DNA of 64,000 bases from Thermoproteota archaeon (GCA_038848185.1 JAWCNV010000006.1:16315-80314); one strand, 5' to 3'; shown: positions 3,054-55,939, counted from the first letter of the stretch. A program made the numbers and translations. The notes: generated by a model not told the origin, from the letters alone.

Positions 3054-4433
3054 ATGCTGCGTAACCGTGAGATTGAGGAGGTTCATGGGGCTGCGCTGCA
3101 GGTTTTGGAGGAGGTTGGGGTGATGTTTGAAAACGGGGAGGCGCTTCAGATTCTGAAGTCTAATGGGGCTGAGGTGAGGGGGAGTGTTGCACATATTCCT
3201 GAGGAGCTGGCGAAGGAGTGTTTGAAGCAGGTTCCCTCCTCCATTAACCTCTATGATCTGGATGGAAGGTTAAGCTGCAGGCTTGGGGGTGACGAGGTTT
3301 ACTTCAACCCGGGTTCAACGGCGAGCTGGTATATCGATGAGAATGGGGAGAGGAGGAGACCTTTTTACAGGGACATGGTGAGGTTTGCACAAGTAGTTGA
3401 GAAGCTGCCTTTTCTGCAGATGCAGAGCACGGCCCTGGTTGTTCAGGATGTTGAGGAGGATTTGCGCGCTGTCTCTAGGCTTCAGGCTGTTCTCGAGGCC
3501 TCTAGGAAGCCGGTTGTCACAGGTGTTTTCAGGGAGGATGATTTTGATAAGATGAAAAATGTTCTTTCGAAGTATACGGATTTGAGCGGGAAGCCGGTTG
3601 CGATATTTGATGCTTGCCCAAACAGCCCTTTACGCTGGAGCAGGCATTTAACCCATAGTGTAATTGAGTGCGCGAGGAACAATATTCCGGCGACGATTAT
3701 TTCGATGCCGATGCCCTTCATCTGTTCTCCCCCGACTCTCGCCGGGAGCCTTGTTCAGCATCATGCAGAGAACCTTAGTGGAATCGTGCTGGCTGAGTGC
3801 GCTGAGCCGGGGGCTAAGGTTATCTACGGGGGCTCTCCCTCCCTACAGGCTAAAAACCCTTTAATGAGCCACCCCGGGGTCTTGAAGCTTATTCTCGCCT
3901 ACAATCAGGTTGGGAAATACTTTGGGATTCCGACCCACGCCTACCTGGGTGTGTCTGATTCCTCAATGGTTGACGAGAGGGCTTTCGTCGAGTCAGCCTA
4001 CTGTTTGGCTAAGGGGAAGGAGGCGGGGGTAAACGTGGTTTCCGGACCCGGGATGCTGGAGGGTGAGAATACTCAAAGCATCCTGAAACTGGTGATTGAC
4101 GGTTTTATTTGCGAAAACGCTTTCACCCGAGGATCATCATTGATAAACAGGGTTCTAGAGGTAATAGATTCTGAGGATGTTTATTCTTACCGCTCCTTTC
4201 TGGAGAAGGAGATTAAGGTGAGCGAGGATACGCTTTGCCTCGGTCTGATTAAGGAGGTTGGCCCTGGCGGTAGCTATCTTAAGCCTAGTTGCGTGAGGGA
4301 GTATCATAGGGTTTTCAGCAGCGAGTTCACAATGCCCTCAGCCAGAGATTTTCAGCAGGAACCTTTGAAAGAACTGTTCGAGGAGGCAAAGAGGAAATCA
4401 GCCTCGTTTCTTAAAGCCTTTGGAAAACTTTGA
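3054..4433 (+). CDS. Trimethylamine methyltransferase (MttB) superfamily protein, non-pyrrolysine type
   Basis: 459 aa. The N-terminus 'REIEEVHGAALQVLEEVGVMFENGEALQILKSNGAEV' matches the MttB family N-terminal signature. Length fits a TIM-barrel MttB. No in-frame amber codon. Confidence 0.65.
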   Translation: MLRNREIEEVHGAALQVLEEVGVMFENGEALQILKSNGAEVRGSVAHIPEELAKECLKQVPSSINLYDLDGRLSCRLGGDEVYFNPGSTASWYIDENGERRRPFYRDMVRFAQVVEKLPFLQMQSTALVVQDVEEDLRAVSRLQAVLEASRKPVVTGVFREDDFDKMKNVLSKYTDLSGKPVAIFDACPNSPLRWSRHLTHSVIECARNNIPATIISMPMPFICSPPTLAGSLVQHHAENLSGIVLAECAEPGAKVIYGGSPSLQAKNPLMSHPGVLKLILAYNQVGKYFGIPTHAYLGVSDSSMVDERAFVESAYCLAKGKEAGVNVVSGPGMLEGENTQSILKLVIDGFICENAFTRGSSLINRVLEVIDSEDVYSYRSFLEKEIKVSEDTLCLGLIKEVGPGGSYLKPSCVREYHRVFSSEFTMPSARDFQQEPLKELFEEAKRKSASFLKAFGKL

Positions 4434-18597: not shown

Positions 18598-20958
18598 TTA
18601 TCTTCGCACTTGGATGATTATGCTAGCAGTAGGAACCCCGTCTGTGGCAGCGGTGAGAACGATTTCTCCCGGTTCACCGTTGGCACGGACAACTACCATT
18701 GCACGCCCCTCATGAACTCTACGCTGATTCCCAACATACATTTCTTCAGAAACTGGGTTGCCAGTGCCCACGGCCACTATAGAACCAACACCATAGGCAG
18801 TGAAATAAATATTGTTGGTTGCGTTATGGCAAATATTTCCTGAAGAATCCACCAGCTCCACGGTAACATAAGATAGGTCTCCGAATTCTGCCTTTAACAC
18901 ATTGCGGTCAGGTTTCAGACGAATATTTGCAGGTTTCCCTGCTGTTCTCAACACAGTGCGGGAGGCTTCAACACCCTTCTCGTATCCGACTGCCACTAGT
19001 TCACCAGGCTCGTAGACAATCCTGAAGGAAGCAATATACCGGTTGGGCTTCCCCGCTGGTTTTCGACCTAGTGACCTACCGTTGAGTAAGAGTTCAACCT
19101 CGCTGTTGAGGCTGTATACGTCTACCATTATCGGCTTACCCTCGTAACCCGGCCAAGTCCATGAGGATACCACATCAGGCCAGCCCCAGAGTGAGATATG
19201 AGGTTTCTTATTGTAATTCTCTGGTTTATGAACCGCGATATATGGGGCTTTAGATATCCCCCAAACGCAGTCACGGTAGTATGATTGAGGCCTTTTGAAG
19301 CCACAAATATCAATGTCTCCGCAGAATGCTTGGTGCCAAGGATATGATCCTAGAAATGGAAACTCGCCTTCTTCATAACTGACCCGTCCAATACCGGCTT
19401 CACCAAGATAGTCTAGAGCAGTCCAGACGAAATCACCGATGACATAGGGTAGTTTTTCAACCGCTTCCCAGTAGTCGTAAACCATCTGAGGGAAGCTCTC
19501 CGTACAGCATATTATACGATTGGGAAAGGTTTTTCCATCGCTATCGTAGCGATGCAGCATATAGTTGTAGCCTACCACATCCAGAGGCTCTGTGAACTTG
19601 GAAGAATGCTCAATCCAGAGTTCGTCAGGAATTCTCCGGTCAGAAGATTCGACCAAAGAGTAGAGAGAAGATTCGGTCAGAGCACTTGTAATAGCCCTCG
19701 TATTATCTAGGCTACGGATAAATTCCGCCAATCTGCGTGAATAAGCATAGCCCTCGGAGAATCCGGTTAATTCCGGGATTTCATTGCCAATCGACCACAT
19801 GATGATGCATGGATGATTACGGTCGCGAAGAATCATGGAAGCCAGGTCTCTCTGCCACCACTCCTCGAAATACATACTGTAATCATTAGGGTTTTTAGAC
19901 TCACGCCAGCAATCGAAGATCTCGTCTATTACCAGCATGCCCAGCTTGTCGCAAGCATCTAGAAAAGCCGGGGAGGGCGGGTTGTGGGCGCACCTTACTG
20001 CATTGTAACCATTAGCTTTAAGCAGCTCAACCTTGCGCTCCTCAGCCCGGTCATATGACGCTGCTCCAAGCAGCCCACAGTCATGGTGTACACATCCTCC
20101 CCTAAGCTTAATGGGTACACCGTTCAATTGGAAGCCTTTTTTCACGTCGAAAGATATGGAGCGGATTCCCACATTAGTCTTAGTCCTGTCAACAACTGTG
20201 CCATCCCGTATAACTTCACTTCTCAGAATATAAAGGAACGGATTCTCCAAGGACCAGAGTTTTGGAGAAGACACCTTGAGGCCCTGAGCAGCCTCAGCTG
20301 AACCGCCGGCAGGAGCCTTCAGTTCAACTTCTCCTTTTGCAACTTCTAGACCTGAGGCTGTCAGCAGCGTTGAACGGACAGTGACACTGGCTGCTGTGGG
20401 ACCAGTATTTTCAACAGTGGTCTTAACTGAAACAATAGAGGCGTCGGAGGAAACTTTTGGAGTCGTCACATAAACACCCCAAGGAGGAATGTAGATTTTC
20501 TCGCCGACCAGCAACCATACATGGCGGTAAATACCTGAGCCACTGTACCAACGGGTATTTGGGTGAGCACTATTATTCACAAAGACACGGATTTTATTAT
20601 CCCGACCATGAAGCAAATAAGGCGTCACATCGCAAAGGAAACTGGTGTAACCATAGGGGTGTCTGGCCACAAGATTGTTGTTGAAATGCACCGCAGCATT
20701 CATATATACGCCTTCAAACTCGAGAAGGATTTTCTTATCCTTCCAATCCTCAGGGACGAATAGTGTTTTTTCATAAGTCGCCATGCCTCCTGGAAAAAAG
20801 CCGTTAGCAGCACCCGCAGGTGCATTTGGATCACGTTTTTGAATAATGCTGAAATCATGAGGTAAATCCACGATTATTCTTTCAGCCTGCTTTGCGAACG
20901 AGCCTTGGGCTACGCCAAAATTGAAAAACCATTGCCTATCCAGATTATATCGCTTCAT
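18598..20958 (-). CDS. Glycoside hydrolase family 2 (beta-galactosidase/beta-glucuronidase-like)
   Basis: 786 aa. N-terminal sugar-binding domain. 'GIYRHVWLL' and the 'WSIGNE' acid/base region are typical of GH2. Confidence 0.8.
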   Translation of the reverse strand: MKRYNLDRQWFFNFGVAQGSFAKQAERIIVDLPHDFSIIQKRDPNAPAGAANGFFPGGMATYEKTLFVPEDWKDKKILLEFEGVYMNAAVHFNNNLVARHPYGYTSFLCDVTPYLLHGRDNKIRVFVNNSAHPNTRWYSGSGIYRHVWLLVGEKIYIPPWGVYVTTPKVSSDASIVSVKTTVENTGPTAASVTVRSTLLTASGLEVAKGEVELKAPAGGSAEAAQGLKVSSPKLWSLENPFLYILRSEVIRDGTVVDRTKTNVGIRSISFDVKKGFQLNGVPIKLRGGCVHHDCGLLGAASYDRAEERKVELLKANGYNAVRCAHNPPSPAFLDACDKLGMLVIDEIFDCWRESKNPNDYSMYFEEWWQRDLASMILRDRNHPCIIMWSIGNEIPELTGFSEGYAYSRRLAEFIRSLDNTRAITSALTESSLYSLVESSDRRIPDELWIEHSSKFTEPLDVVGYNYMLHRYDSDGKTFPNRIICCTESFPQMVYDYWEAVEKLPYVIGDFVWTALDYLGEAGIGRVSYEEGEFPFLGSYPWHQAFCGDIDICGFKRPQSYYRDCVWGISKAPYIAVHKPENYNKKPHISLWGWPDVVSSWTWPGYEGKPIMVDVYSLNSEVELLLNGRSLGRKPAGKPNRYIASFRIVYEPGELVAVGYEKGVEASRTVLRTAGKPANIRLKPDRNVLKAEFGDLSYVTVELVDSSGNICHNATNNIYFTAYGVGSIVAVGTGNPVSEEMYVGNQRRVHEGRAMVVVRANGEPGEIVLTAATDGVPTASIIIQVRR

Positions 20959-21309: not shown

Positions 21310-22698
21310 TCATCCGAATAGGGTTGTTATGCTTTCCGGCGGAACGGCCACATCTAGCAGGTTATTAGATACTGTTATATCGCCAATATAAGCACAGTTT
21401 TCAGATTTTGATGTACGGTACTGTTTGAATAACAGGGGTGAAACGTTTTTCAGATTTATTTTCATGTTGATAGTATCTTGACTCTCGTTTATGATAATGA
21501 TCGTCACATGATTATCAGCCTCATTAAGATATGCAGAGACCAGTATTTTCTGAATATTGGATGCAGCATATATTCTTCTCGATCCTGGAGTGATGAACCC
21601 AGAATATTGTTTTACAGCATAGAATGTCGGATTAACCCTATAGCTATTGTCACTAGGGTTTACGCTAATCAAACCGCCTTTCATGTACCAGAATAAGCCC
21701 CATACAAAGTATGCAGAGGCGTTTTCAACAGTTAGCACATTATGTATATGGTGAGCTGTAGCAAGCGCCTCCTTAAACGTTCCGATATTAGCGTCTTCCG
21801 AACAGCTGTATTCTGTCTGCCATACCGGTCTTTTGAACTGAGCACCGTATCCTGCAATAGTTTCCATCTGAATGGTCTCCTCATCCGGGTTGAAGAAGCT
21901 GACGTCATAAAGATGGTGAGCAAAAACCTCCACGTATTGAGCAGCCTCCGCATCATACATTATAAGAGGTATATATCTTACAGCGCCGGAGCAACCTGCA
22001 GCTTCGGGAACCATTATTTTCGTTGATAAACCCTCAGCCCTAAACTTAGCACCCACGATCTTGATAAGGTCCCTTAGTTGCTCAGGGGTATATGTACATG
22101 TTTCCCACTTATCGGTTGAAAAATCAGGTTCATTCTGCAGGCTTATCCAGCCTATATCTATACCAAAGCGATTTTTATACCCTATTATGTAGGCAGCTAG
22201 AAACTCTGCGAATTCCTCGTACATTTCAGGAAGAAGATAACCTCCTCCTTTCTCCTCACCCGTGTTCTTCATCCATCTGGGTGGACTCCACACAGAAGCC
22301 ATGAATTTCGTAACCCCCCTTTCCTTAGCTTGTTGTGCATTCCAAATCTGCCTATCACTCGCTATGCTGAAATGGAATGCGTCCCAATTAAAGTTATTAG
22401 GGTCAGCATCATCGTTAACCCTTTCAACATCAGTCCACACCCTTAACCGGTAGATGCTTATACCAAGGTCGGAGAACAATAGGTCAAGAACCTTTGTTCT
22501 ACTAGGCTCTTTCAAGAGCATTACTGATGATTCATAATAAGCTCCGGATCCCCCGAAACCTTCAATCTCTTGATATTTTATCGAGCCATCAACTGTCACC
22601 ACATTCTCTTTAGATACTACCCCAGTTCCTAAGAAAAAGATAATTGCAGCAGAGGTTGCTGACAACAGGATTACGATTAAAGATTTCTTCAAAGCCAT
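21310..22698 (-). CDS. Glycoside hydrolase family 30 (xylanase/glucosylceramidase-like), secreted
   Basis: 462 aa. N-terminal signal/TM segment. 'GFGGSGAY', 'LQNEPD' (acid/base Glu) and 'WQTEYS' (nucleophile Glu) match the GH30 pattern. Confidence 0.75.
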   Translation of the reverse strand: MALKKSLIVILLSATSAAIIFFLGTGVVSKENVVTVDGSIKYQEIEGFGGSGAYYESSVMLLKEPSRTKVLDLLFSDLGISIYRLRVWTDVERVNDDADPNNFNWDAFHFSIASDRQIWNAQQAKERGVTKFMASVWSPPRWMKNTGEEKGGGYLLPEMYEEFAEFLAAYIIGYKNRFGIDIGWISLQNEPDFSTDKWETCTYTPEQLRDLIKIVGAKFRAEGLSTKIMVPEAAGCSGAVRYIPLIMYDAEAAQYVEVFAHHLYDVSFFNPDEETIQMETIAGYGAQFKRPVWQTEYSCSEDANIGTFKEALATAHHIHNVLTVENASAYFVWGLFWYMKGGLISVNPSDNSYRVNPTFYAVKQYSGFITPGSRRIYAASNIQKILVSAYLNEADNHVTIIIINESQDTINMKINLKNVSPLLFKQYRTSKSENCAYIGDITVSNNLLDVAVPPESITTLFG

Positions 22699-24922: not shown

Positions 24923-27900
24923 ATGGAGAAAAGAAAGGTTGTTAAGAGGGATGGGAGGATTGTTGATTTCGACCCTGTTAGGATTAGGAATGCTGTTATG
25001 AAGGCTATGCTTAGTGTAAAGCAGTATGACGAGGAGACTCTGGAGAAAGTTGTCAGCTACGTTTTAGGCTTTTTAAACGAGAGGTATGAGCAGGGTGTGA
25101 CCCCACATGTTGAGGACATACAGGACTTGGTGGAGTTTACGCTTGTGAAGTTTGACCTCTACGATGTTGCGAAAGCGTATATTCTTTACAGGAAGGAAAG
25201 GGAGAGAATAAGGGAGGAGAAGAAGGCGCTTCTCCAGAAGGATTTCATAGATGAGGTTGACAAGGAGTTTTCAGTCAACGCGATCAGGCTGATGGCGAGC
25301 CGTTACCTGCTTAAGGATGAGGAGGGGAAGCTTGCGGAAACGCCGAAGCAAATGTTTCAACGGGTTGCTATGGCAATTGTGATACCGGATATACTTCATG
25401 ACCCAAAGGTATTTCTTAAGGACGGAGGTTTACCAGTTTCCCCACGTGAAGAGTTTAACGCTGAATCTTACGCTAACAGGTTTGGCCTCGGAAAGAACGG
25501 TGACGGCTATACTGTTACTTGGAACAGTCATCATCTGGAGCGTATGAAGACGCTTTACGACGAGCTTAATTCACATGGTGAAATGAAGGTTTCTTGGAGC
25601 GATTTCCTGAGGATGCTGGGTTCAGGAGAATTCGAGAATTACTACAATGATTTCAAAGAGTATTATGATCTCATGGTTTCTAAAAGGTTCATGCCGAATT
25701 CACCGACGTTGTTCAACGCTGGAACAAGGCTCGGCCAACTCTCCGCGTGCTTCGTGCTCGACATAGAGGACAATATTGAGTCAATCATGAATGCGGCGAC
25801 TCAGGCAGCAATTATTTTCAAATCCGGTGGCGGAGTGGGAATAAACTATTCTAAGCTGAGGCCTGCCGGGGACATTGTGTCCAGCACTTCAGGAGTGGCA
25901 AGCGGCCCAGTCTCCTTCATGAGGATAATAGATACTGTTACTGATGTGGTGAAGCAAGGAGGTAAGAGGAGAGGGGCGAACATGGGGATTCTCGAGGTTA
26001 ATCACCCTGATATAGAGACGTTCATAACGGCGAAGTCTGAACGAGGAAGGCTTGAAAACTTCAACATATCTGTAATTGTCGGAGAAGATTTCTGGGATTA
26101 CCTTGATAAGGATGCTCCATATCCTCTTGTGAACCCTAGGGACGGAAGAACCTGGAAGACTGTTCAAGCTAAAGAAGTTCTCCGTAAGATGAGCGAGATG
26201 GCTTGGAGGACTGGCGACCCAGGTGTCATATTCCTCGACAACATTAATAGGAGGAACATGCTAGCGAAGCATAAGGGACCCATAAGATCAACCAACCCAT
26301 GCGTCTCCGGTGACACGAGGATTCTTACTCCTGATGGATGGATTAGGGCTGACGAGCTGTTTCATAAGGCTAGGCTTTCTGGTCAAGTTAAGGCTGTAGC
26401 AATCGATGAAGACCTGTTAGGTGATGGAGGTGAGCCACAAGCTTACAGGACGAAGCTAGTAACTATAGAAGGAGAAGAAGTAGTATACAGAACGGTTCAT
26501 GGAGAGGAATTGAATCTTCCCGTTCCTAGGGAAGCAGAGGCTTGGGTCTGGCATGTGGGTAAGAAGCCGGGTTTAGTGGTGAGGACAGAGGAAGGGTATG
26601 AATTGACTGTTACTTACGATCACAAGTTACTGACTCAAGAAGGGTGGAAAAAGGCCAAGGATCTTGCACCAGGAGATAAAGTATTGGCCAGCAGGCTTCA
26701 TCCATGGTTCCTAGAGTATGTTTACAAGGGGAGCTACAATCTTGATGAGGATGTATCGTTCGTATTAGGGTGGCTTGTTGGAGACGGCTCATTCAACAAA
26801 CATTACATTGCTTGGTTTTTCAACGAGGACGATAAAGCAGCCGAGGAATGCATAAGAAGAGGGATAGAGAAGATTGGAGGTAACCCATTATCCCACACTT
26901 ATGTTATAAGTAAGAGCGAGCATAAGATACAGTATAATAAGGACTCCACTGTATACAAGAATATGATGAATCTCATGGGTTCCTTGATGGAGAAGAGTAG
27001 GAATAGAAGATTTCCAGAGGTCATTTGGAAGCTAAGCCCCAGATCTTTAGCATTCTTTCTCAAGGGGCTCTTTACTGCTGACGGGTATGTAGATAACGAT
27101 AGGGCGGTGAGGCTGACGAGTGCCAGCTTACAAATACTTAAGGAGGCTCAACTACTTCTAACAATCTTTGGCATAGCATCCAGAATCTATGAGAGACCAT
27201 ATGAAGGAGAATTCCACTATGTTACCAAGGATGGTGAAGAAAGGAGTTACACGGCTTCTAGTTACTACGAGTTAGTGATAAACGGGTATAGTAGGAGGAT
27301 ATTTAAAGAACTTATAGGTTTTGAAAATATAAGTAAGCTTGAGAAACTTTCCCTAAAAAAGACTAAAAGAGATTCTTTACTAGTGACCGTGTCCTCCCTC
27401 GAAGATGTAGGGCGGGTAGATTTTTACGATTTTACAGTTCCAGCTTATCATAAATACATAGGAAACGGTTTTATAAACCACAATTGCGGTGAGGAACCAT
27501 TATACCCTTACGAATCCTGTAACCTTGGCTCGATAAACCTGTATGCCTTCGTAAAAAGGAATGGGAAAGAAACCTATTTCGATTGGGAGGAGTATTGTAA
27601 CACGATTAGGATTGCCCTGAGGTTTCTGGATAATGTGATAGACGTGAACAGGTTTCCAATACCTGAGATAGAGCGTGAAACTAAACAAACTAGAAAGGTG
27701 GGCTTAGGAGTCATGGGACTGGCAGACATGCTTTTCGCCCTTAGAATACCCTATAATAGTGAGGAGGGCTTTAAGATGATGAACATGGTAGCTGAACACT
27801 TAACCTTCTACGCCATCAGAGAGTCCTGCAGGCTTTCTAAGGAGCGGGGCCCATTCCCCCTATACCCTGACTCGTCCTACCCGGATGGCGAGATGCCTGT

Positions 27901-28726
27901 TGAAGGCTTTTACCATAAGGAGTGGCAGACACTTCCCTGGCAGGAGCTCCAGCAGGAGGTAAAAAGGTTCGGAGTAAGGAATGCTGAAGTAACAACTATC
28001 GCGCCAACAGGCTCAATCTCGATGCTGGCAGACGTTTCCTCCGGTATAGAGCCTCAGTTCGCCCTCATATATGAGAAGAGGGTTAGCATGGGAACATTCT
28101 ACTATGTTGACGCAGAGTTTGAGAAGACTCTTAATGAGAACGGGCTTTACGAGGAGAAGATGCTTAAACTGATTTCAGATAACGGCGGGTCGCTAGTAGG
28201 GCTTGACCCTATTCCAAGGGAATTAGCTGATGTTTTCCTAGTTGCCTACGACATACCTTGGTGGGACCATGTTAGGGCACAGGCAGAGTTTACGAAGTGG
28301 ATCTGTGCCGCGGTGAGCAAGACGATAAATATGCCTAACTGGGTTACTGTTGAAGATGTTGAGAAGGCCTTTATGCTGGCGCATGCTATGGGGGTTAAAG
28401 GCGTAACGATCTACCGGGATGGGTCTCTTCCTACGCAAGTTCTTGTTACACCGTCCTCTAAACTCGGGAGATACGTGAAGACCTTCAACAACTCGACTAT
28501 TAAGATGGCGGAGTCTCTAGGAATAGAGATAAAGGTATATGCGGGGGAAATTACAAATCCTCCTTCCGGAAAGATGATGCCGGAGAAGCCTGTTCTGATT
28601 CTTGAAAGAAACACTGCTCCAAGCAGCTACACGGAGTGTCCGAATTGCGGCAGTAAGCGTCTTACTAGGGAGGGGGGGTGTCTTCACTGTCTCGACTGCG
28701 GGTGGAGCATATGTCCTGTGGCTTAG
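24923..28726 (+). CDS. nrdJ: Ribonucleoside-diphosphate reductase, class II adenosylcobalamin-dependent (NrdJ), intein-containing precursor
   Basis: N-terminal ATP-cone ('VVKRDGRIVDFDPVRIRNAV'). Class II RNR core. Active-site 'STNP|C...HN|CGEEPL' split by a 395-aa insertion. C-terminal Cys4 zinc ribbon 'CPNCG...CLHCLDCG'. 1267 aa including intein. Confidence 0.9.
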   Translation: MEKRKVVKRDGRIVDFDPVRIRNAVMKAMLSVKQYDEETLEKVVSYVLGFLNERYEQGVTPHVEDIQDLVEFTLVKFDLYDVAKAYILYRKERERIREEKKALLQKDFIDEVDKEFSVNAIRLMASRYLLKDEEGKLAETPKQMFQRVAMAIVIPDILHDPKVFLKDGGLPVSPREEFNAESYANRFGLGKNGDGYTVTWNSHHLERMKTLYDELNSHGEMKVSWSDFLRMLGSGEFENYYNDFKEYYDLMVSKRFMPNSPTLFNAGTRLGQLSACFVLDIEDNIESIMNAATQAAIIFKSGGGVGINYSKLRPAGDIVSSTSGVASGPVSFMRIIDTVTDVVKQGGKRRGANMGILEVNHPDIETFITAKSERGRLENFNISVIVGEDFWDYLDKDAPYPLVNPRDGRTWKTVQAKEVLRKMSEMAWRTGDPGVIFLDNINRRNMLAKHKGPIRSTNPCVSGDTRILTPDGWIRADELFHKARLSGQVKAVAIDEDLLGDGGEPQAYRTKLVTIEGEEVVYRTVHGEELNLPVPREAEAWVWHVGKKPGLVVRTEEGYELTVTYDHKLLTQEGWKKAKDLAPGDKVLASRLHPWFLEYVYKGSYNLDEDVSFVLGWLVGDGSFNKHYIAWFFNEDDKAAEECIRRGIEKIGGNPLSHTYVISKSEHKIQYNKDSTVYKNMMNLMGSLMEKSRNRRFPEVIWKLSPRSLAFFLKGLFTADGYVDNDRAVRLTSASLQILKEAQLLLTIFGIASRIYERPYEGEFHYVTKDGEERSYTASSYYELVINGYSRRIFKELIGFENISKLEKLSLKKTKRDSLLVTVSSLEDVGRVDFYDFTVPAYHKYIGNGFINHNCGEEPLYPYESCNLGSINLYAFVKRNGKETYFDWEEYCNTIRIALRFLDNVIDVNRFPIPEIERETKQTRKVGLGVMGLADMLFALRIPYNSEEGFKMMNMVAEHLTFYAIRESCRLSKERGPFPLYPDSSYPDGEMPVEGFYHKEWQTLPWQELQQEVKRFGVRNAEVTTIAPTGSISMLADVSSGIEPQFALIYEKRVSMGTFYYVDAEFEKTLNENGLYEEKMLKLISDNGGSLVGLDPIPRELADVFLVAYDIPWWDHVRAQAEFTKWICAAVSKTINMPNWVTVEDVEKAFMLAHAMGVKGVTIYRDGSLPTQVLVTPSSKLGRYVKTFNNSTIKMAESLGIEIKVYAGEITNPPSGKMMPEKPVLILERNTAPSSYTECPNCGSKRLTREGGCLHCLDCGWSICPVA
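26300..27484 (+). mobile_element. Intein with LAGLIDADG homing-endonuclease domain inside nrdJ
   Basis: Begins with Cys ('CVSGDTRILTPDGW', block A). Ends 'FINHN' followed by extein Cys. Two LAGLIDADG motifs ('VLGWLVGDGSF' and 'FLKGLFTADGYV'). In-frame 1185 nt. Confidence 0.9.
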
Positions 28727-48923: not shown

Positions 48924-51344
48924 TTAATTTATGTTTGAAGGAACCCATACTAGGGCGACTAGCTGAATATTAATACCTGTTTTTGTTGCGGTATACCACA
49001 CGGTTTCAAAGGTTTCAGTAAGGGGGTTGATTTTTGTTTCTATGGTATTGATTTCTGATTGAAACTGCGCTTCGAGTTTTTCTCGTTCTTGCTGCAGGGC
49101 TTTCAAGTTTTCCTCTGCTTTTTCCTTATCCCTCTTTTCCTTCATAGTGCGAGATATTTCTCTCGTGGCTCTTGTAGCGCGGGTGCTCGACTTTCTTCCA
49201 AGAAATGATCCTAAAATGGTTTCGCCTATTGATACCGCAGCCTCGTATTCCCGACTTTTAGCTTGCGCTTGTTGCTCCTCCAGAACCATTTTCGCCCGTC
49301 TTATTCGCTCATCCAGCCTAGCTAGCGCTGAAGCATATTTTTGCCGAAGTTTTTCAACCTGCTGGTCACGCTTTTCCCTAGCTATTTGTTGAAGCCTAAT
49401 CCTGAAGTCGCGTTCAGTTTCTCCAAATTGCGATAGCTCGTTTAGAGAGGGGCTTCTAAATAACTGGAGTTTCTGAGTTCTTAAAAGCCAGTTTGAAAAA
49501 TCTTTTTCCCAATATGCATAGTTTTTTGCATTTGTAGCAGCAGGCGGTAGATCGGTGTAAGGTAAATCTTCTGGGGGCTCTTCTAATAGGTCTGGAACCT
49601 TTACATCCACTTCTTTTGCCTCATCCCAATTGACAGGTATGGGCTTGTCGCTGACGGGAGTAATGAAAACCTTTTCTACCGTTGTGTATATCCCCTCTTT
49701 CGGCACCGAGTATTGTATCTGTGCAGCCCCGATTAGCATAGGTTGATAAATCATACTGATCTGTTTGCCTATGTCTTTTTTGTAAGGCATATAGTATTCT
49801 CTTATGCCAGGCGGTATAATTGGTTTTTTACTGGTCATCGTTAATGCCGATGGAGCAGGTGAGGCTACGGCAGGAGATAGTTTGGAAGTGGTTTGTGGGC
49901 TGATTAAAAGTTTCTGCTGTCTTTTCATCGGCTCAACCAGCATTTTGATTTGTTCTCTTGTTAATGGGCCTCGCAGATATGACATTGCCCACCTAGTTTC
50001 GAAAACGGCTGGCGCGTCTTCATGCACATTATTCATAAGAAAGATTCTTTTCCCAAGACCTGACAAAACCCTGTCGAAATATTGCCTGCTGAATCCTTTT
50101 TGACTTGCCAACGCGACTCCTTCAAGCCCGTCTAGCACCCTTTCCTTATCACGTTCAGTCTGGAGCCTTCCAAGAAACCATGTGCCTGCATTTGAAAGCG
50201 CTTTATAATCTAAGTCTATCGGGTTCTGCGTCGCCAACACTACACCTAGCCCGAAAGCACGTGCCTGCTTCAGAAGAGTTATAAGCGGTAGTTTTGATGG
50301 AGGATTAGCCACAGGGGGAAGGTATCCGAAAACCTCATCGATGTAAAGTATGGCACGTAAACTTGTGGTGCCAGACTGAGTTCTCATCCATCCCACTATC
50401 TGGTTCAGGAGCAAAGATACGAAAAACATGCGTTGAGCATCATTCAAGTGTGCAATGTAAAATATCGATATCCTTGGCTTACCGCTGGGTGAATAAAGGA
50501 GTTGACCTACATCCAGCGGGTCTCCTTCGAGCCACAGGCTGAATCCCGGTGCGGCGAGAAGATTATTCAACCGCAGGGCTAGTTCGAAACGGTCTTTCGA
50601 CGGGTAGAACGATTCCAGGTCAAGAACCCCGATACGCTTCAAAGGCGGAGACTGAATGAGTTGAATCAAGCGTCCCAGATCTAAGTCTTCACCTTGCCGC
50701 CAACATTGCGCAAGAATGTTGGATATCAGAATGTGCTCCCTTGATTTGATTGGATCTGCTTCTATTCCTAAGAGCGAGAGCAGGCTTGTGACCGTTGTGT
50801 TTATTCTCTCCTGTAAAAGCTCTTCATCCTGTATGATCTCTATGGGGGGTGTTGCGAAAGATTTTAAAATTGAAATTTGAAGCCCCGCATTGCTTCCGGG
50901 AGTATAGATGAGGAATTCAGCTGAATCACGGAGCCTTTGAATACGGTTTCCATCCTGACCCCATTTTTGTAACCCTTCCCTCCATAAAGCGGCTTGTTGT
51001 TCAGCAAACTCTTCTGGGGAAAGCCCCTTTTTCCGTGCATCCTCCTCATTTATCCATGGTAAAAAATCTTGACCCTGCAAACGGGGAAACGTTAGAAGTA
51101 GATTTGTAACATCTCCTTTTGGGTCGATCAAAATAGCGGGGACATTGTCAATCGCAGCCTCTTCAATAAGAGAAATGCATAATCCTGTTTTCCCGCTTCC
51201 CGTCATGCCGATGCATACCGCGTGCGTAACCAGATCCTTTGAGTCATAAAGCAACAACTCCTTCAAAGGAGAGCCCTTCTTAATATCGTAAAGACGACCA
51301 AGGTAGAAGACCCCGAGTTTTTCAAAACCTTGCATTCTAATCAT
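48924..51344 (-). CDS. HerA/FtsK-superfamily (DUF87-like) P-loop ATPase with ~250-aa C-terminal coiled-coil/low-complexity extension
   Basis: 806 aa. 'LYDSKDLVTHAVCIGMTGSGKTGLCISLIEEA' is the DUF87/HerA-type Walker A context. 'ILYIDEVFGYLP' is Walker B (DE). 'VVLATQNPIDLD' is sensor-like. C-terminal 'EKRDQQVEKLRQKYASALARLDERIRRAKMVLEEQQAQAKSREYE...KEKRDKEKAEENLKALQQEREKLEAQFQ'. Confidence 0.65.
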   Translation of the reverse strand: MIRMQGFEKLGVFYLGRLYDIKKGSPLKELLLYDSKDLVTHAVCIGMTGSGKTGLCISLIEEAAIDNVPAILIDPKGDVTNLLLTFPRLQGQDFLPWINEEDARKKGLSPEEFAEQQAALWREGLQKWGQDGNRIQRLRDSAEFLIYTPGSNAGLQISILKSFATPPIEIIQDEELLQERINTTVTSLLSLLGIEADPIKSREHILISNILAQCWRQGEDLDLGRLIQLIQSPPLKRIGVLDLESFYPSKDRFELALRLNNLLAAPGFSLWLEGDPLDVGQLLYSPSGKPRISIFYIAHLNDAQRMFFVSLLLNQIVGWMRTQSGTTSLRAILYIDEVFGYLPPVANPPSKLPLITLLKQARAFGLGVVLATQNPIDLDYKALSNAGTWFLGRLQTERDKERVLDGLEGVALASQKGFSRQYFDRVLSGLGKRIFLMNNVHEDAPAVFETRWAMSYLRGPLTREQIKMLVEPMKRQQKLLISPQTTSKLSPAVASPAPSALTMTSKKPIIPPGIREYYMPYKKDIGKQISMIYQPMLIGAAQIQYSVPKEGIYTTVEKVFITPVSDKPIPVNWDEAKEVDVKVPDLLEEPPEDLPYTDLPPAATNAKNYAYWEKDFSNWLLRTQKLQLFRSPSLNELSQFGETERDFRIRLQQIAREKRDQQVEKLRQKYASALARLDERIRRAKMVLEEQQAQAKSREYEAAVSIGETILGSFLGRKSSTRATRATREISRTMKEKRDKEKAEENLKALQQEREKLEAQFQSEINTIETKINPLTETFETVWYTATKTGINIQLVALVWVPSNIN

Positions 51345-52708: not shown

Positions 52709-54610
52709 GTGACGCTTCCCGTTGTAATCATTGCTGCAGGGGTAGCCTCTAGGCTAAAACCCTACTCGGAGGAGACGCCTAAATGCCTCATGGAGCTGGA
52801 GCCAGGTGTAACAATACTGGACTTTATCCTAAGTAGGTTGGAGGACGTTAAACCTCCCCGCGTCTTTATCATTACAAGACCACAGTTTAGAAGAATACTG
52901 GAGGAGAAGTTAAGGGGGAAGGTGGATTTAGTGGAGACTGACAAGGAGGAGTTTGGAAACCTTTACAGTGTTAGCTTAGCTTTGAAAAGGTTAGGTGCAG
53001 ATAGTTTCCTCATCCTCATGTCTGACCATATTTATGAGAAGGCGGTTGTCGAAGAAGTTTTATCTTCAGGAAATAAGGCGGCGTTCACTGTTTGCCTCGA
53101 GAGAAAGCCTTCGCAGACTGAGGCGGAGGAAGGATTGAAAATCGTGTTAAAAGAGCAGGGAGTAGCCTACGCGGACAAGAAGGTTTTGCCTAGACACGGA
53201 ATAGATACGGGCGTGATACTATGCAGAGAGAAGTCTAAGAAATATATAGAGAAGACAATAGAGGAGTTTGGTCCTAATGCAACAATAGCAGACGTGTTGA
53301 AACTTGCTTCCGCAGAGAATGAAGTGGATTATGTGGATGTTACTGGAAAGCTTTGGAAAGACATAGACACGCCTGAGGATCTGGTTAAGGGTAGAGAGGT
53401 TTACTGGCAAATATTGAGGAGGGAGAACGAGACCGAAGGTGGATTAATCTCGAGATACCTTATTAAGCCTGTATCGACACGTGTTTCTATAGCGGTCTAT
53501 CGAGGCTTTGACGTAGAGCCTCTGGCAATAATGCTGGTTTCGTTTATACTTGCCTTGTCAGCAGGTTTCCTCCTAGCGAGAGGAAGCTCCCTATGGGGAG
53601 GATTGCTTGTTGGACTCGTATCTCTAATTAGTGAAGTGGGCAATGAATTGGTAAACCTTGACAGAGGAGCTTCTTGGAGACTTCACGTAAGTTCATTACT
53701 GGATCGCGTTTCAGATATTGCGATAGTAGGCGGATTTTCAATGCCCCTACTTTCAGTTGAAGACAGTAGCAACTTCCTGTTTGTTATTCTTGCAATCTCT
53801 AATATAATATTGGTGAGTTATGCGACTCAGGTTTTGAACAGTATTGGCATAAAAACAAGGGGTCTAAGAAAAATACCTGCGACCAGAGACGTGCTGTTGT
53901 TCGTAGTTTTTATTGCCTTAATAATTTCGCTTCCCCTATACGGATTATACTATTTGTCTATAGTACCTATTTTCTACCTATTGTACTCTATTATTCTGGC
54001 CTTAAGAAGCAGAAGGGAAAAAGCTAAGCCGGAGAGAAGAAAGAAACCGCCTAAGCCTGAGGTTGTGATAGAGAGGGGGGAAGTGGGTAAGAAGATTGAA
54101 AGCCTTGTTTCCAACTCGCTTAAACTGGCGTTATCACTCCTCTTCCTGCATATGGCTACACCAGTGGTTTCAGACATTACCTTGATAACTATCGATGACT
54201 TGGTTTTGAAGTCAGACCACTTGCTATCCGCCTTATTTCTAGCCATATCAATATACTTCGGGTACCGTATACTTATGTCCTTGAAATTCCTTATAGATGT
54301 CGTGACTAAACGCTTAGTAGCGGTTCTCAGAATCTCGGAGTTCACGCTCAGACACGTGTTGATTGATTCACTATACATCTTGCTGGCTTTAGTGCTTTGG
54401 ATTTATCTGCCTCCCCAGCTTAGGCTCATACCATATATTGGTGAAAACCTTGCAAGGCTAGGAGCATTAGCAATATTCGTCTTCTTCATATTAATACTCT
54501 ACGATATGGCGAAGCTCCTTTACAAGACTTTCGGAGACATCTACAGAAAGATGATAGAGAAGATTACGGAGAAGATTCATGAAAGCACGGAGTCCTCTGA
54601 ACATGCTTAA
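52709..54610 (+). CDS. Bifunctional-architecture protein: sugar-phosphate nucleotidyltransferase (IPCT-like, canonical) fused to a large membrane domain with a divergent CDP-alcohol phosphotransferase-like motif
   Basis: 633 aa. N-terminal 'VVIIAAGVASRLKPYSEETPKCLMEL' is the G-x-G-x-R-L...PK nucleotidyltransferase signature. Then about 9 TM helices. The 'NLDRGASWRLHVSSLLDRVSD' region only loosely matches D-G-x2-A-R...D-x3-D. Confidence 0.6.
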   Translation: MTLPVVIIAAGVASRLKPYSEETPKCLMELEPGVTILDFILSRLEDVKPPRVFIITRPQFRRILEEKLRGKVDLVETDKEEFGNLYSVSLALKRLGADSFLILMSDHIYEKAVVEEVLSSGNKAAFTVCLERKPSQTEAEEGLKIVLKEQGVAYADKKVLPRHGIDTGVILCREKSKKYIEKTIEEFGPNATIADVLKLASAENEVDYVDVTGKLWKDIDTPEDLVKGREVYWQILRRENETEGGLISRYLIKPVSTRVSIAVYRGFDVEPLAIMLVSFILALSAGFLLARGSSLWGGLLVGLVSLISEVGNELVNLDRGASWRLHVSSLLDRVSDIAIVGGFSMPLLSVEDSSNFLFVILAISNIILVSYATQVLNSIGIKTRGLRKIPATRDVLLFVVFIALIISLPLYGLYYLSIVPIFYLLYSIILALRSRREKAKPERRKKPPKPEVVIERGEVGKKIESLVSNSLKLALSLLFLHMATPVVSDITLITIDDLVLKSDHLLSALFLAISIYFGYRILMSLKFLIDVVTKRLVAVLRISEFTLRHVLIDSLYILLALVLWIYLPPQLRLIPYIGENLARLGALAIFVFFILILYDMAKLLYKTFGDIYRKMIEKITEKIHESTESSEHA

Positions 54611-54661
54611 ATTTTTATTCGTAGGAGGAACCAATTAATGAGGATCCTAGAGGGATAAGGG

Positions 54662-55939
54662 ATGAGAGCGATAATACTTGCTACGGAGAAAGATTTCATA
54701 TTCGGCAAGAACAGGCCGCTTGCCTTAGTTAAGGTGTGCAGTGTCTCCCTGATAGCGAGAATCTTGAATTCTGTTAGAGCTGCAGGAATTAGGGAAGCCC
54801 TTATAGTTTTAGGGTCCAAAGGAGAGGAGATACGTGACATGTTTAAAAACGGCGAGGAAATAGGTCTTAAACTACTTTATCTTCAAGCAGGAGAACGCGA
54901 GGTTCCTAAGTTGAGGGAGTTTCTGAATGATGATTTGCTGATAATAAATGGAGATGTCGTTATAGACACGGAGTTTGTAAGCGGAATCATGAAGATAGCA
55001 GGCAGTGTTGCTTGCTATCTTAACAGTGAGTCTATTGGAATTTACAGACTAGACAGGGAGTACTCAAGACTGTTGCAAGACGATGTTGCTTCGAATCTCG
55101 GTAAAATATTAGAGGAGATTGAAGTTAAGATCCTTAGGCTAGACATAACTAAGATGGAGATGGAACATGTTGAGTTAAAGCGCAGGGTTTCTCCAGTCTG
55201 CGTCAAGATAAATAGTAGGAATGCGATTGAGCTTGCTAAAAGGAAACTTGTTTTCAGAACTCAAAAGGGGCTTCACTTCACCTCCTACATAAATAAGCCC
55301 ATAGAGGACCGTGTCACCTATCACATAGCTGAAGTATCTTGGATAACTCCGAACAGGATAACGATTCTTACAAACTTGCTGGCTTTTGCTGTTGCAGTAT
55401 TATTCCTCTTAGGATACATGAAGATAGCGGTGGTTCTGGCTTACATGGTTGGAATATTAGATGGGCTTGACGGGAAACTAGCCAGGGCAAGAGGAATTTT
55501 AACAAGGCTCGGATATATTGAGCACACGTTCGACATGCTTTACGAGCAAGCATGGTATGTATGTTTCGCCTTAAGCCTATACTTGCTGGAAAACAATTAT
55601 CTGCCGTTAGTTCTGGGATTATGCATGCTTATCGCAGACAGCTTTGTGAGGCATTGCTACATGCAGTTTAAAGAGACCATGGGGAAGGCTTTAACAGCGT
55701 ACACCAGTTTCGACAGGACCTTTGCTAGAGTAGATGGTAGGAGAAATGTGTACGTCCTATATATGATACTGTTCTCATGGTTACCCTGGTTAGGGAAACC
55801 CTTGTACGCTATGTATGCAATGCTGATACATTCTTCAGTCACAGCCTTAGTATATGCGATAAGGGCTGTTCAACACATGAGTGCCGCAGATAGGGCAGAA
55901 GGCCTAAGGGGCTTTCTTAAGCTTGTGGGAAAACCGTGA
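54662..55939 (+). CDS. IPCT/DIPPS-like protein: degenerate nucleotidyltransferase-like N-domain fused to intact CDP-alcohol phosphotransferase (di-myo-inositol-phosphate-phosphate synthase-like)
   Basis: 425 aa. N-terminal 'IILATEKDFIFGKNRPL' lacks GxGxR. C-terminal 'PNRITILTNLL...VGILDGLDGKLARARGILTRLGYIEHTFDML' is a canonical CDP-OH phosphotransferase motif. Confidence 0.65.
   Translation: MRAIILATEKDFIFGKNRPLALVKVCSVSLIARILNSVRAAGIREALIVLGSKGEEIRDMFKNGEEIGLKLLYLQAGEREVPKLREFLNDDLLIINGDVVIDTEFVSGIMKIAGSVACYLNSESIGIYRLDREYSRLLQDDVASNLGKILEEIEVKILRLDITKMEMEHVELKRRVSPVCVKINSRNAIELAKRKLVFRTQKGLHFTSYINKPIEDRVTYHIAEVSWITPNRITILTNLLAFAVAVLFLLGYMKIAVVLAYMVGILDGLDGKLARARGILTRLGYIEHTFDMLYEQAWYVCFALSLYLLENNYLPLVLGLCMLIADSFVRHCYMQFKETMGKALTAYTSFDRTFARVDGRRNVYVLYMILFSWLPWLGKPLYAMYAMLIHSSVTALVYAIRAVQHMSAADRAEGLRGFLKLVGKP

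Follow-up and report, generated by a model that had tools for sequence, protein, structure and literature searches.

Positions 52,709 to 55,939 of a 64,000-nucleotide stretch of DNA from a Thermoproteota archaeon (GCA_038848185.1 JAWCNV010000006.1:16315-80314; hereafter the window) hold two adjacent genes, P1 and P2, whose products share the double architecture of the two-function enzyme IPCT/DIPPS, which joins a CTP:inositol-1-phosphate cytidylyltransferase (IPCT) to a synthase of di-myo-inositol-phosphate phosphate (DIPPS), namely a nucleotidyltransferase domain followed by a membrane-embedded CDP-alcohol phosphotransferase (CDP-AP) domain. Neither P1 nor P2 carries both live sites, and there is no bifunctional member in the pair. 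It is likely that the two proteins together represent a two-polypeptide version of an IPCT/DIPPS-type pathway, and the history of the pair is not the in-place subfunctionalisation of a fresh duplicate. P1 belongs to a family of long forms whose CDP-AP site has been lost on several occasions, and at nearly all of the decayed loci a P2-type gene is the immediate neighbour.

Catalytic motifs of P1 and P2

The features of the pair are the following.

52709-54610 (+): P1, long-form gene, 633 aa, GTG start; apparently live cytidylyltransferase, decayed CDP-AP membrane domain and C-terminal four-helix module
52709-53428 (+): P1 nucleotidyltransferase domain, aa 1-240 (PF12804, E 1.5e-12; PF00483, E 5.7e-10)
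53438-54016 (+): P1 pseudo-CDP-AP domain, aa 244-436; juxtamembrane helix and six predicted transmembrane (TM) helices, fold kept, signature lost
53630-53716 (+): P1 decayed signature stretch, aa 308-336, SEVGNELVNLDRGASWRLHVSSLLDRVSD; of eight signature residues only D4 (D332) remains
54017-54064 (+): P1 linker rich in Lys, Arg and Pro, aa 437-452; predicted disordered (predicted local confidence, pLDDT, <50), 50% identity in the Brockarchaeota clade
54065-54607 (+): P1 C-terminal extension, aa 453-633; four long hydrophobic helices and a beta-hairpin
54611-54661 (+): P1-P2 spacer, 51 nt, with GGAGG (54624-54628) and GAGGG (54650-54654) before the P2 ATG
54662-55939 (+): P2, K-type short-form gene, 425 aa; dead cytidylyltransferase-like domain and intact CDP-AP domain
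54662-55186 (+): P2 pseudo-nucleotidyltransferase domain, aa 1-175; fold recognisable, catalytic motifs gone
55244-55891 (+): P2 CDP-AP domain, aa 195-410 (PF01066, 36.1 bits against a gathering cut-off of 22 bits)
55460-55546 (+): P2 signature, aa 267-295, DGLDGKLARARGILTRLGYIEHTFDMLYE; D1, D2, G, A, R, G and D4 kept, E287 at D3

P1 and P2 are probably transcribed as a single operon. A 134-aa antisense open reading frame (ORF; 53974-54378), which lies inside P1 on the opposite strand, was taken as an artefact.

Resemblance to IPCT/DIPPS is found in both proteins. NF041135, the NCBIfam equivalog model for the bifunctional enzyme (Thermococcales enzymes; curated cut-off 580 bits), aligns nearly end to end with P1 (residues 6-432 against positions 4-417 of 419, E 1e-43) and in two stretches with P2 (E 2e-20). 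With scores of 149.8 and 73.4 bits, respectively, both proteins fall far under the equivalog cut-off, and 'IPCT/DIPPS-like' is the name that their sequences justify. The structure of the Archaeoglobus IPCT/DIPPS (4mnd) aligns with residues 5-425 of P1 (E 2e-22) and 179-403 of P2 (E 8e-7); it is the best sequence match of both proteins and also the best structural match of P1. A confident AlphaFold model of P1 made with 28 homologues (pLDDT 82.7) finds 4mnd as its top solved match (E 1.5e-20, 442 columns), ahead of 4jd0 and 2xme, which are both IPCTs.

The N-terminal domain of P1 displays the nucleotidyltransferase signature A9-A-G11-V-A-S-R15-L ... K25, in which the second glycine is replaced by Ala at a position that varies between Ala and Gly across the family. 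All family-invariant nucleotidyltransferase residues are retained (A9, G11, R15, K25, N84, M104-S-D-H107, G164-I-D-T-G168, W216, D218, D220 and T221). The membrane domains were scored on the eight residues of the CDP-AP signature D1xxD2GxxAR..G..D3xxxD4, in which two Mg ions are bound by the four Asp, D4 presumably acts as the catalytic base, and the lining of the nucleotide cleft comes from G, A and G (PMC4634129; PMC6506517). In P1, a single one of them is kept (D1=S308, D2=G311, G=N312, A=V315, R=N316, G=R324/L325, D3=S328, D4=D332), and R333 and D336 are also retained in the decayed stretch. PF01066 gives no match to P1, in which Pfam sees only nucleotidyltransferase domains, but homology of the fold is clear, as the dead TM domain aligns over its full length with the TM domains of intact long forms (hhalign probability 100%, E 3e-41). 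It is therefore a pseudo-member of the class I CDP-APs. On the models of the phosphatidylinositol-phosphate (PIP) and archaetidylinositol-phosphate synthases (NF045883 and NF040950, cut-offs 170-180 bits), P1 reaches 19.9 bits, under the cut-off.

The reverse situation is found in P2, for which Pfam reports only a CDP-AP domain (PF01066). Seven of the eight signature residues are kept (D267, D270, G271, A274, R275, G284 and D291), with E287 at D3, and together with the Pfam score this places P2, unlike P1, among the class I CDP-APs. This Glu is universal in the P2 family, together with a G..D3 spacing shorter by one residue, and it also occurs in members whose cytidylyltransferase is intact; its interpretation as degeneration was rejected, the change being family-wide, bifunctional members included. 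In the N-terminal region, residues 1-118 match several nucleotidyltransferase models (TIGR03992, for example, with E 2e-10), and the losses comprise G9, R13, N83, M96, H99, D124, T125, W180, D182, D184 and T185, along with deletion of the GK pair, such that P2 retains about 8 of some 27 positions whose conservation in intact domains is 90% or more. The archaetidylinositol-phosphate and PIP synthase models give 40.5 and 30.6 bits with P2, under their cut-offs of 180 and 170 bits.

These assignments largely bear out a preliminary description of the window, which had placed two adjacent IPCT/DIPPS-like genes at exactly these coordinates and had ascribed to them complementary degeneration. The upstream copy has the proposed nucleotidyltransferase signature and a phosphotransferase motif that keeps one signature residue of eight, and the downstream copy has lost, beyond the GxGxR that was reported missing, nearly all N-domain motifs. 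Its phosphotransferase motif, said to be perfect, is so at seven positions, the eighth being the conservative and family-wide Glu at D3. When scored against the Archaeoglobus enzyme, the sets of catalytic residues are not both complete.

Two old families and repeated decay beside P2-type genes

P1 and P2 lack similarity detectable by BLAST (BLASTP E 4.9, 19% identity) and fall into two separate families, and they are therefore not recent tandem duplicates. The P1 family was collected by an alignment-based pattern scan of one genome per GTDB species, which yielded 79 loci, each sorted by motif state and by the neighbours found in flanks of up to 10 kb. Its members, from TACK archaea, are long forms of approximately 620-650 aa, in which the nucleotidyltransferase and CDP-AP domains are followed, after a basic linker, by a module of approximately 180 aa made of four long hydrophobic helices and a hairpin. 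They occur in Brockarchaeota, Bathyarchaeia, Nitrososphaeria, Caldarchaeales, Korarchaeia, Thermofilaceae, Desulfurococcales and Hadarchaeota, and most of them are intact in both catalytic domains, with the CDP-AP motif DGxDGExARL..G..DSxLDRxxD. The closest relatives of the window pair are found in Brockarchaeota metagenome-assembled genomes (MAGs), such as QC4_43 (84% identity for P1 and 81% for P2).

The P2 family consists of K-type short forms of approximately 425-450 aa with the motif DGxDGKLAR..G..EHxFDxxxE. It includes members of about 450 aa with a live cytidylyltransferase (P0167-P0183) as well as archaeal proteins with a dead N-domain, from Thermoproteales, Thermofilaceae, Bathyarchaeia and Brockarchaeota, which form a single clade beside intact short forms in a neighbour-joining (NJ) tree of the membrane domain. 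The existence of one such clade implies that the N-domain of the P2 type died once, long ago, and the decay of the long-form CDP-AP domain came later than that loss. N-regions devoid of GxGxR are also seen in bacterial K-type CDP-APs of 420-480 aa (P0184-P0212, from Chthoniobacterales, Novosphingobium and others), which make up a clade separate from the archaeal dead-N proteins.

Decay of the long form is markedly associated with the presence of a P2-type neighbour. Among decayed long forms whose contig continues, a P2-type gene is directly adjacent at 12 loci (7 of the Brockarchaeota clade, 1 of Bathyarchaeia, L016, 3 of Thermofilaceae/Infirmifilum and 1 of Thermoproteales) and absent at one (L061), while it is found at none of the 46 intact loci, which were counted only if at least 1.5 kb of downstream sequence was available. 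Six further loci stop at a contig edge before the neighbour, four of them decayed and two with the motif not covered. The gene order of the window, with short gaps or overlaps, recurs at the 12 decayed loci; the P2-type gene lies on the same strand in 11 of them, and in L016 it is convergent. The association has a Fisher p of 2.5e-10, uncorrected for phylogeny (decayed, 10 with and 1 without; intact, 0 with and 46 without); two loci, L072 and L073, joined the decayed class after this test. Clustering of the ORFs around the 79 loci revealed, besides the pair, no widely conserved neighbour, the next most frequent being an ABC-transporter ATPase (19/79).

The number of decays was estimated from an NJ tree of the non-decayed parts of the long forms (N-domain and C-extension, 400 columns, 200 bootstraps). 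The Brockarchaeota clade groups with intact Bathyarchaeia forms to the exclusion of the decayed L016 in 100% of the bootstraps, monophyly of all decayed forms is recovered in 0%, and a group made of Thermofilaceae and L061/L068 in 3%, which indicates at least four independent decays of the long-form CDP-AP motif. This count is supported by the differing replacement sequences, which read SEVGNELVNL in Brockarchaeota, LEIGRDLDKLIGRL in L016, LDEITHELLVL in L068 and LGEASDELHSL in L061, and are unrecognisable in Thermofilaceae.

Intermediate states have also been found. In L082, two genes take the place of the long form, one for a 234-aa nucleotidyltransferase and one for the 386-aa membrane remainder, and a P2-type gene comes after them; the remainder has the motif DGVDGELTKL, in which A, R and G are lost. 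Two further partly decayed long forms, P0036 and P0019 (the latter with the motif DGVDGELSEL..LEHISE), were looked up as a blind test, and both have a P2-type gene directly downstream. In addition, the complete genome of the cultured Thermofilum pendens Hrk5 encodes a decayed long form of 608 aa followed by a P2-type protein of 410 aa that is 39% identical to P2 (CP000505.1, at about 1186233-1188059 and 1188068-1189300, respectively). According to the scenario that we propose, an N-dead K-type transferase would have come to adjoin a bifunctional long form, whose own transferase site, made dispensable by this neighbour, would then have decayed.

Retained domains, proposed chemistry and competing explanations

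The dead domains have not been left to drift. In the Brockarchaeota clade, the pseudo-CDP-AP domain of P1 is 65% identical, and the N-domain and C-extension are 78% and 80% identical, respectively. Relative to the N-domain, the dead domain evolves at a rate of 1.6; among intact clades, the ratio lies at 0.8-1.1 in three and at 1.8 in one more. Of the 47 positions conserved to at least 80% in intact forms, 19 have stayed invariant in the dead domain, including E313, D332, D336, P390, R393 and D394. Likewise, the pseudo-nucleotidyltransferase domain of P2 is 63% identical across the Brockarchaeota clade, compared with 83% for the membrane domain. Conservation of this extent indicates that both dead domains still fold and that purifying selection on them, though relaxed, persists. 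Domains in this state are most naturally read as structural, and they are probably retained as scaffolds. CDP-APs are homodimers (PMC4634129) that associate through TM3 and TM4, with residues of the partner chain approaching the active site (PMC6506517), which makes a P1-P2 pseudo-homodimer attractive. In this more speculative step, since dimerisation of CDP-APs is obligate, the dead membrane domain of P1 may pair with P2, and such pairing would tether the cytidylyltransferase beside the single live transferase site.

The C-extension of P1 is modelled as four long helices and a hairpin (pLDDT 82.6) and has no informative structural match. With an hhalign probability of 0.8%, it is not a second CDP-AP domain that has diverged. 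Only 47 relatives were found among 1.84 billion representative proteins, comprising long forms and free-standing proteins of approximately 165-195 aa from Korarchaeota and Nitrososphaeria (P0227-P0253; L093 6001-6579; L128 6359-6937), which are annotated as 'hypothetical' or, wrongly, as PerM or ABC permease. One free-standing copy directly follows an intact short form in L128, the only such link among the contexts examined; the copy in L093 has transporter genes around it and neither a nucleotidyltransferase nor a CDP-AP gene close by, and another is on a 1.3-kb contig. Intact and decayed long forms carry the extension alike, and it is therefore no adaptation to decay. As an autonomous module, it occurs only in this enzyme family and in a few free-standing genes.

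As for the chemistry, the complementary motif states support the earlier suggestion that substrate activation falls to one copy and transfer to the other. The N-domain of P1 would convert CTP and L-myo-inositol-1-phosphate to CDP-inositol at the membrane surface, and the membrane domain of P2 would transfer the phospho-inositol group to an alcohol acceptor, with release of CMP. The simplest acceptor would be a second inositol-1-phosphate, giving di-myo-inositol-phosphate phosphate (DIPP), although another polyol phosphate is possible, and a phosphatase encoded elsewhere would finish the solute. The product is probably an inositol-phosphate protective solute. This assignment draws on the N-domain of P1, which is most like three solved inositol-1-phosphate cytidylyltransferases (4mnd, 2xme and 4jd0) and is conserved with the N-domains of intact long forms, and on the genes for myo-inositol-1-phosphate synthase (MIPS) found near relatives of both proteins. 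A MIPS gene adjoins an intact long form in L025, and MIPS genes lie inside 13 of the 80 P2-family loci obtained from a metagenome scan, including operons L112, L116 and L117, in which MIPS, a nucleotidyltransferase and a dead-N P2-type gene follow one another; L080 is a further P2-family case. The preliminary description had advised looking for MIPS elsewhere in the genome; MIPS is annotated in Brockarchaeota MAGs, including the pair-carrying GD2_1 (PMC8065059 supplementary file 9).

The 80 P2-family loci can be sorted by the source of the nucleotidyltransferase, in categories whose counts are approximate because the motif regular expression mislabels a few intact N-domains as dead (L149, for example); L172, in which the motif Arg is gone (AAGQRSQL) and the Lys present, is borderline in this classing. 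A fused intact short form is found in approximately 40 loci. The dead-N P2-type gene is located behind a separate nucleotidyltransferase gene in 15, behind a decayed long form that is whole, split or unrecognisable in its membrane domain in 6, and behind a split nucleotidyltransferase and an intact DIPPS-like gene in 2. There is no nucleotidyltransferase gene in at least 1.5 kb upstream in 6 loci, and the upstream contig is too short in 11. Triple fusions of a live nucleotidyltransferase, a dead one and a CDP-AP domain also exist (P0163 and L108). In L081, L086 and L087, stand-alone dead-N P2-type genes belong to a conserved block with genes for an SDR, a DAO-like oxidoreductase and a UbiA prenyltransferase, which may hint at a lipid-related role for this sub-branch.

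Several observations weigh against the proposed two-polypeptide pathway or against parts of it. Substrate identity is deduced, for both subfamilies, from similarity and gene neighbourhood, and tblastn detected no MIPS gene in the 64-kb window, where no obvious phosphatase is present either. In PIP synthase, the residue that follows D4 is described as being positive in all cases and as required to bind inositol phosphate (PMC6506517), and the P2 family lacks Lys or Arg at this position, which is Met292 in P2. P2-type genes coexist with an intact split DIPPS-like gene in L085/L102 and in L099, so that P2 need not duplicate the function of DIPPS and its product may differ, and others lack a nearby nucleotidyltransferase gene (L081, L084, L086, L097 and L103). 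Taken together, the missing basic residue, the coexistence with DIPPS and the stand-alone genes make a distinct acceptor or product a live possibility. With respect to pairing, excess conservation of TM3 and TM4 was sought in the dead domain of P1, and no helix stood out from the flat profile. Neighbour joining is the sole method behind the trees. Finally, the decayed long form L061 (8501-10429, Thermoprotei MAG B12_G16) has no P2-type gene within approximately 8-10 kb; either its partner is encoded at another place in the genome or this archaeon no longer has the pathway.

Other explanations for the pair differ in what they make of its adjacency and of its history. In the version put forward in the preliminary description, a bifunctional IPCT/DIPPS was tandemly duplicated in this lineage and the copies underwent complementary losses. 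The shared two-domain layout, the adjacency on the same strand and the complementarity of the losses are what such classical subfunctionalisation predicts, but it is very improbable in view of the absence of pairwise similarity (E 4.9), of the 180-aa C-terminal module of P1 that the P2 family lacks, and of the different motif dialects (DGxDGE..DSxLDR in the P1 family, DGxDGK..EHxFD in the P2 family). Moreover, the closest intact relatives of P2 are short forms, its dead-N clade being single, old and extending from Thermofilaceae to Brockarchaeota, whereas those of P1 are fully intact Bathyarchaeia long forms, and the losses in the two long-separated subfamilies differ in age and number. Alternatively, the two genes might be independent, with P2 an Af2299-like or lipid-head-group transferase that obtains its donor, such as CDP-glycerol or CDP-archaeol, from elsewhere, P1 a membrane-anchored cytidylyltransferase of another pathway, and their adjacency meaningless. 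This might account for the lack of a basic residue after D4 in P2, for its weak matches to archaetidylinositol-phosphate and PIP synthase models (40 and 31 bits), for the P2-type genes that stand alone beside UbiA and SDR genes, and for the existence of Af2299, which shares the architecture of P2 and binds CDP-glycerol (PMC4634129). It appears improbable, however, since adjacency is found in at least four independent lineages and correlates near-perfectly with decay of the P1 transferase site, since fusions of an active nucleotidyltransferase to a P2-type protein and MIPS|NT|P2 operons exist (NT, nucleotidyltransferase), and since P2 scores higher on the IPCT/DIPPS model (73 bits) than on those of the lipid synthases. 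In addition, cytidylyltransferase-like N-domains have been reported only for CDP-APs that do not process lipids (PMC4634129).

The remaining explanations concern the decayed domain of P1. That it is still catalytic through a non-canonical site is scarcely credible: D4 (D332), the presumed catalytic base, and E313 are retained, but the Mg-binding D1, D2 and D3 and the G, A and R of the nucleotide cleft are gone, the replacement residues differ between lineages, and the domain evolves 1.6 times faster than the N-domain (0.8-1.1 in three of the four intact clades, 1.8 in the other). With seven of the eight signature residues missing, the earlier alternative, in which a different solute or lipid head group comes from the longer copy, likewise fails for the transferase domain of that copy. 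Compatible with a two-polypeptide pathway is the idea that the decayed domain and the C-module have acquired a new role, such as binding of inositol-1-phosphate or the product, osmotic or thermal sensing that would regulate the pair, or export or retention of the solute. The replaced motif is itself conserved in the Brockarchaeota clade (S-E-V-x-x-E-L-V/I-N-L), of the 19 positions that stay invariant, D332, D336 and the P390..R393-D394 loop are located on the acceptor side of the site, as is the retained R333, the degree of conservation of the C-extension equals that of the catalytic N-domain, and free-standing copies of the extension are found beside an intact short form (L128) and among transporter genes (L093). 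Such a role is nevertheless doubtful, because hardly any of these residues survive in the Thermofilaceae long forms, which are paired all the same, and the C-extension is also present in fully intact long forms. A stronger version of pairing is conceivable as well, though we regard it as rather unlikely: P1 and P2 would form an obligate pseudo-symmetric heterodimer, in which the dead P1 protomer and the C-module would be needed in trans to complete or gate the acceptor site of P2, the cytidylyltransferase would be kept positioned over this site, channelling CDP-inositol, and the product would be an inositol phosphodiester other than di-myo-inositol phosphate (DIP).

Known systems, genomic surroundings and significance

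Like the pair, the Archaeoglobus fulgidus IPCT/DIPPS has an N-terminal cytidylyltransferase connected by a juxtamembrane helix to a six-TM CDP-AP domain, and relatives of both the P1 and P2 families are found in MIPS neighbourhoods. It has both live sites on one polypeptide, whereas P1 and P2 have one live and one dead site each. P1 also differs from it by the extra four-helix C-terminal module, and the P2 family by the Lys after DG, the Glu at D3, the shorter G..D3 spacing and the absence of a basic residue after D4. Rodrigues et al. in 2007 and Goncalves et al. in 2012 are reported to have described split systems, in which some (hyper)thermophiles have one gene for IPCT and another for DIPPS. 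In these systems, the two activities reportedly reside on two polypeptides encoded by adjacent genes, an arrangement that is seen in L085, L088 and L112. Unlike them, P1 and P2 each retain the other's domain as a folded, conserved and inactive copy.

The PIP and archaetidylinositol-phosphate synthases (6h53) have the same CDP-AP fold and signature as P2, with inositol-1-phosphate as the acceptor; they use lipid donors and, unlike P2, have no cytidylyltransferase-like domain. The architecture of P2 is closer to that of Af2299 (4o6m), a live six-TM CDP-AP behind a cytosolic domain described only as cytidylyltransferase-like, with no transferase activity reported for it; the enzyme acts on soluble substrates (PMC4634129); Af2299 and AfDIPPS both carry such a domain (PMC4634129). 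P2 has this layout, with a motif-less N-domain in front of a live-looking CDP-AP domain, and the membrane domain of 4o6m matches P2 with E 3.7e-6. The similarity is confined to the TM region, the N-domains having no sequence match, and it speaks for shared architecture rather than for orthology. Furthermore, Af2299 binds CDP-glycerol, and no paired pseudo-transferase partner was found in the Af2299 literature examined, while the P2 family is tied to IPCT-like and MIPS genes and not to a glycerol-phosphate cytidylyltransferase. Relative to these systems, the features that appear to be new are the dead domains kept reciprocally by the two partners, a long-form family that has an additional module, and decay that recurs beside a P2-type gene. 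A literature search, which did not reach the primary IPCT/DIPPS papers, so that prior mention is possible, gave no description of such a pair, and searches on pseudoenzyme CDP-alcohol transferases and on Thermofilum pendens and inositol returned nothing relevant.

Around the pair, a PIN-domain (VapC-like) toxin gene is located just upstream of P1 (51914-52294, -); PIN and antitoxin genes are also near homologous pairs in two unrelated metagenome loci (L082 9508-10212 and L085 3358-3989). Genes convergent with P2 (55958-58186, -) encode a small 2x[4Fe-4S] ferredoxin, a 128-aa protein that is rich in Cys and matches no Pfam family, a DGC-domain protein and a P-loop NTPase of the NUBPL/Mrp type, and an Mrp-type gene is found near the pair in the Brockarchaeota locus L007 as well. 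Further upstream are a gene for an 806-aa P-loop protein (48924-51344, -), borderline for HerA/DUF87 (23.1 bits against a cut-off of 23.2), with a long coiled-coil-like C-terminus and otherwise unannotated, and a 206-aa ORF (47513-48133, -) that matches only an MscS-type beta-domain (PF00924, E 1e-11), lies 4.6 kb upstream of the putative solute genes and may be a short or truncated channel. Elsewhere, the window encodes a 1267-aa ribonucleotide reductase (24923-28726, +; ATP-cone and barrel) with an intein that harbours a LAGLIDADG homing endonuclease at approximately residues 542-854, an MttB-family, trimethylamine methyltransferase-like protein (3054-4433, +; E 4e-55) and glycosidases of families GH2 (18598-20958), GH30 (21310-22698) and GH42 (44199-46367). 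A methylotrophic, carbohydrate-degrading lifestyle has reportedly been proposed for the phylum Brockarchaeota, and the MttB protein and the glycosidases would fit it.

The decayed long forms constitute a natural replicate series, with at least four decays, intermediates and gene splits, in which an active site was lost in nearly every lineage that has an already half-dead enzyme encoded beside it, and the dead domains were retained. For annotation, motif states show which copy can perform which step among the hundreds of genes of TACK archaea that are labelled 'NTP transferase domain-containing', 'CDP-alcohol phosphatidyltransferase family' or 'bifunctional IPCT/DIPPS'. Since the pair is present in the cultured Thermofilum pendens, the predictions of divided activity, physical association and solute production are testable. 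If P1 and P2 did form an obligate heterodimer with a product other than DIP, this would explain both the K-type motif dialect and the coexistence of P2-type with ordinary DIPPS genes, and, if such a heterodimer had evolved repeatedly, it would offer a case from nature in which the subunit complexity of a membrane enzyme has risen by a ratchet-like process.

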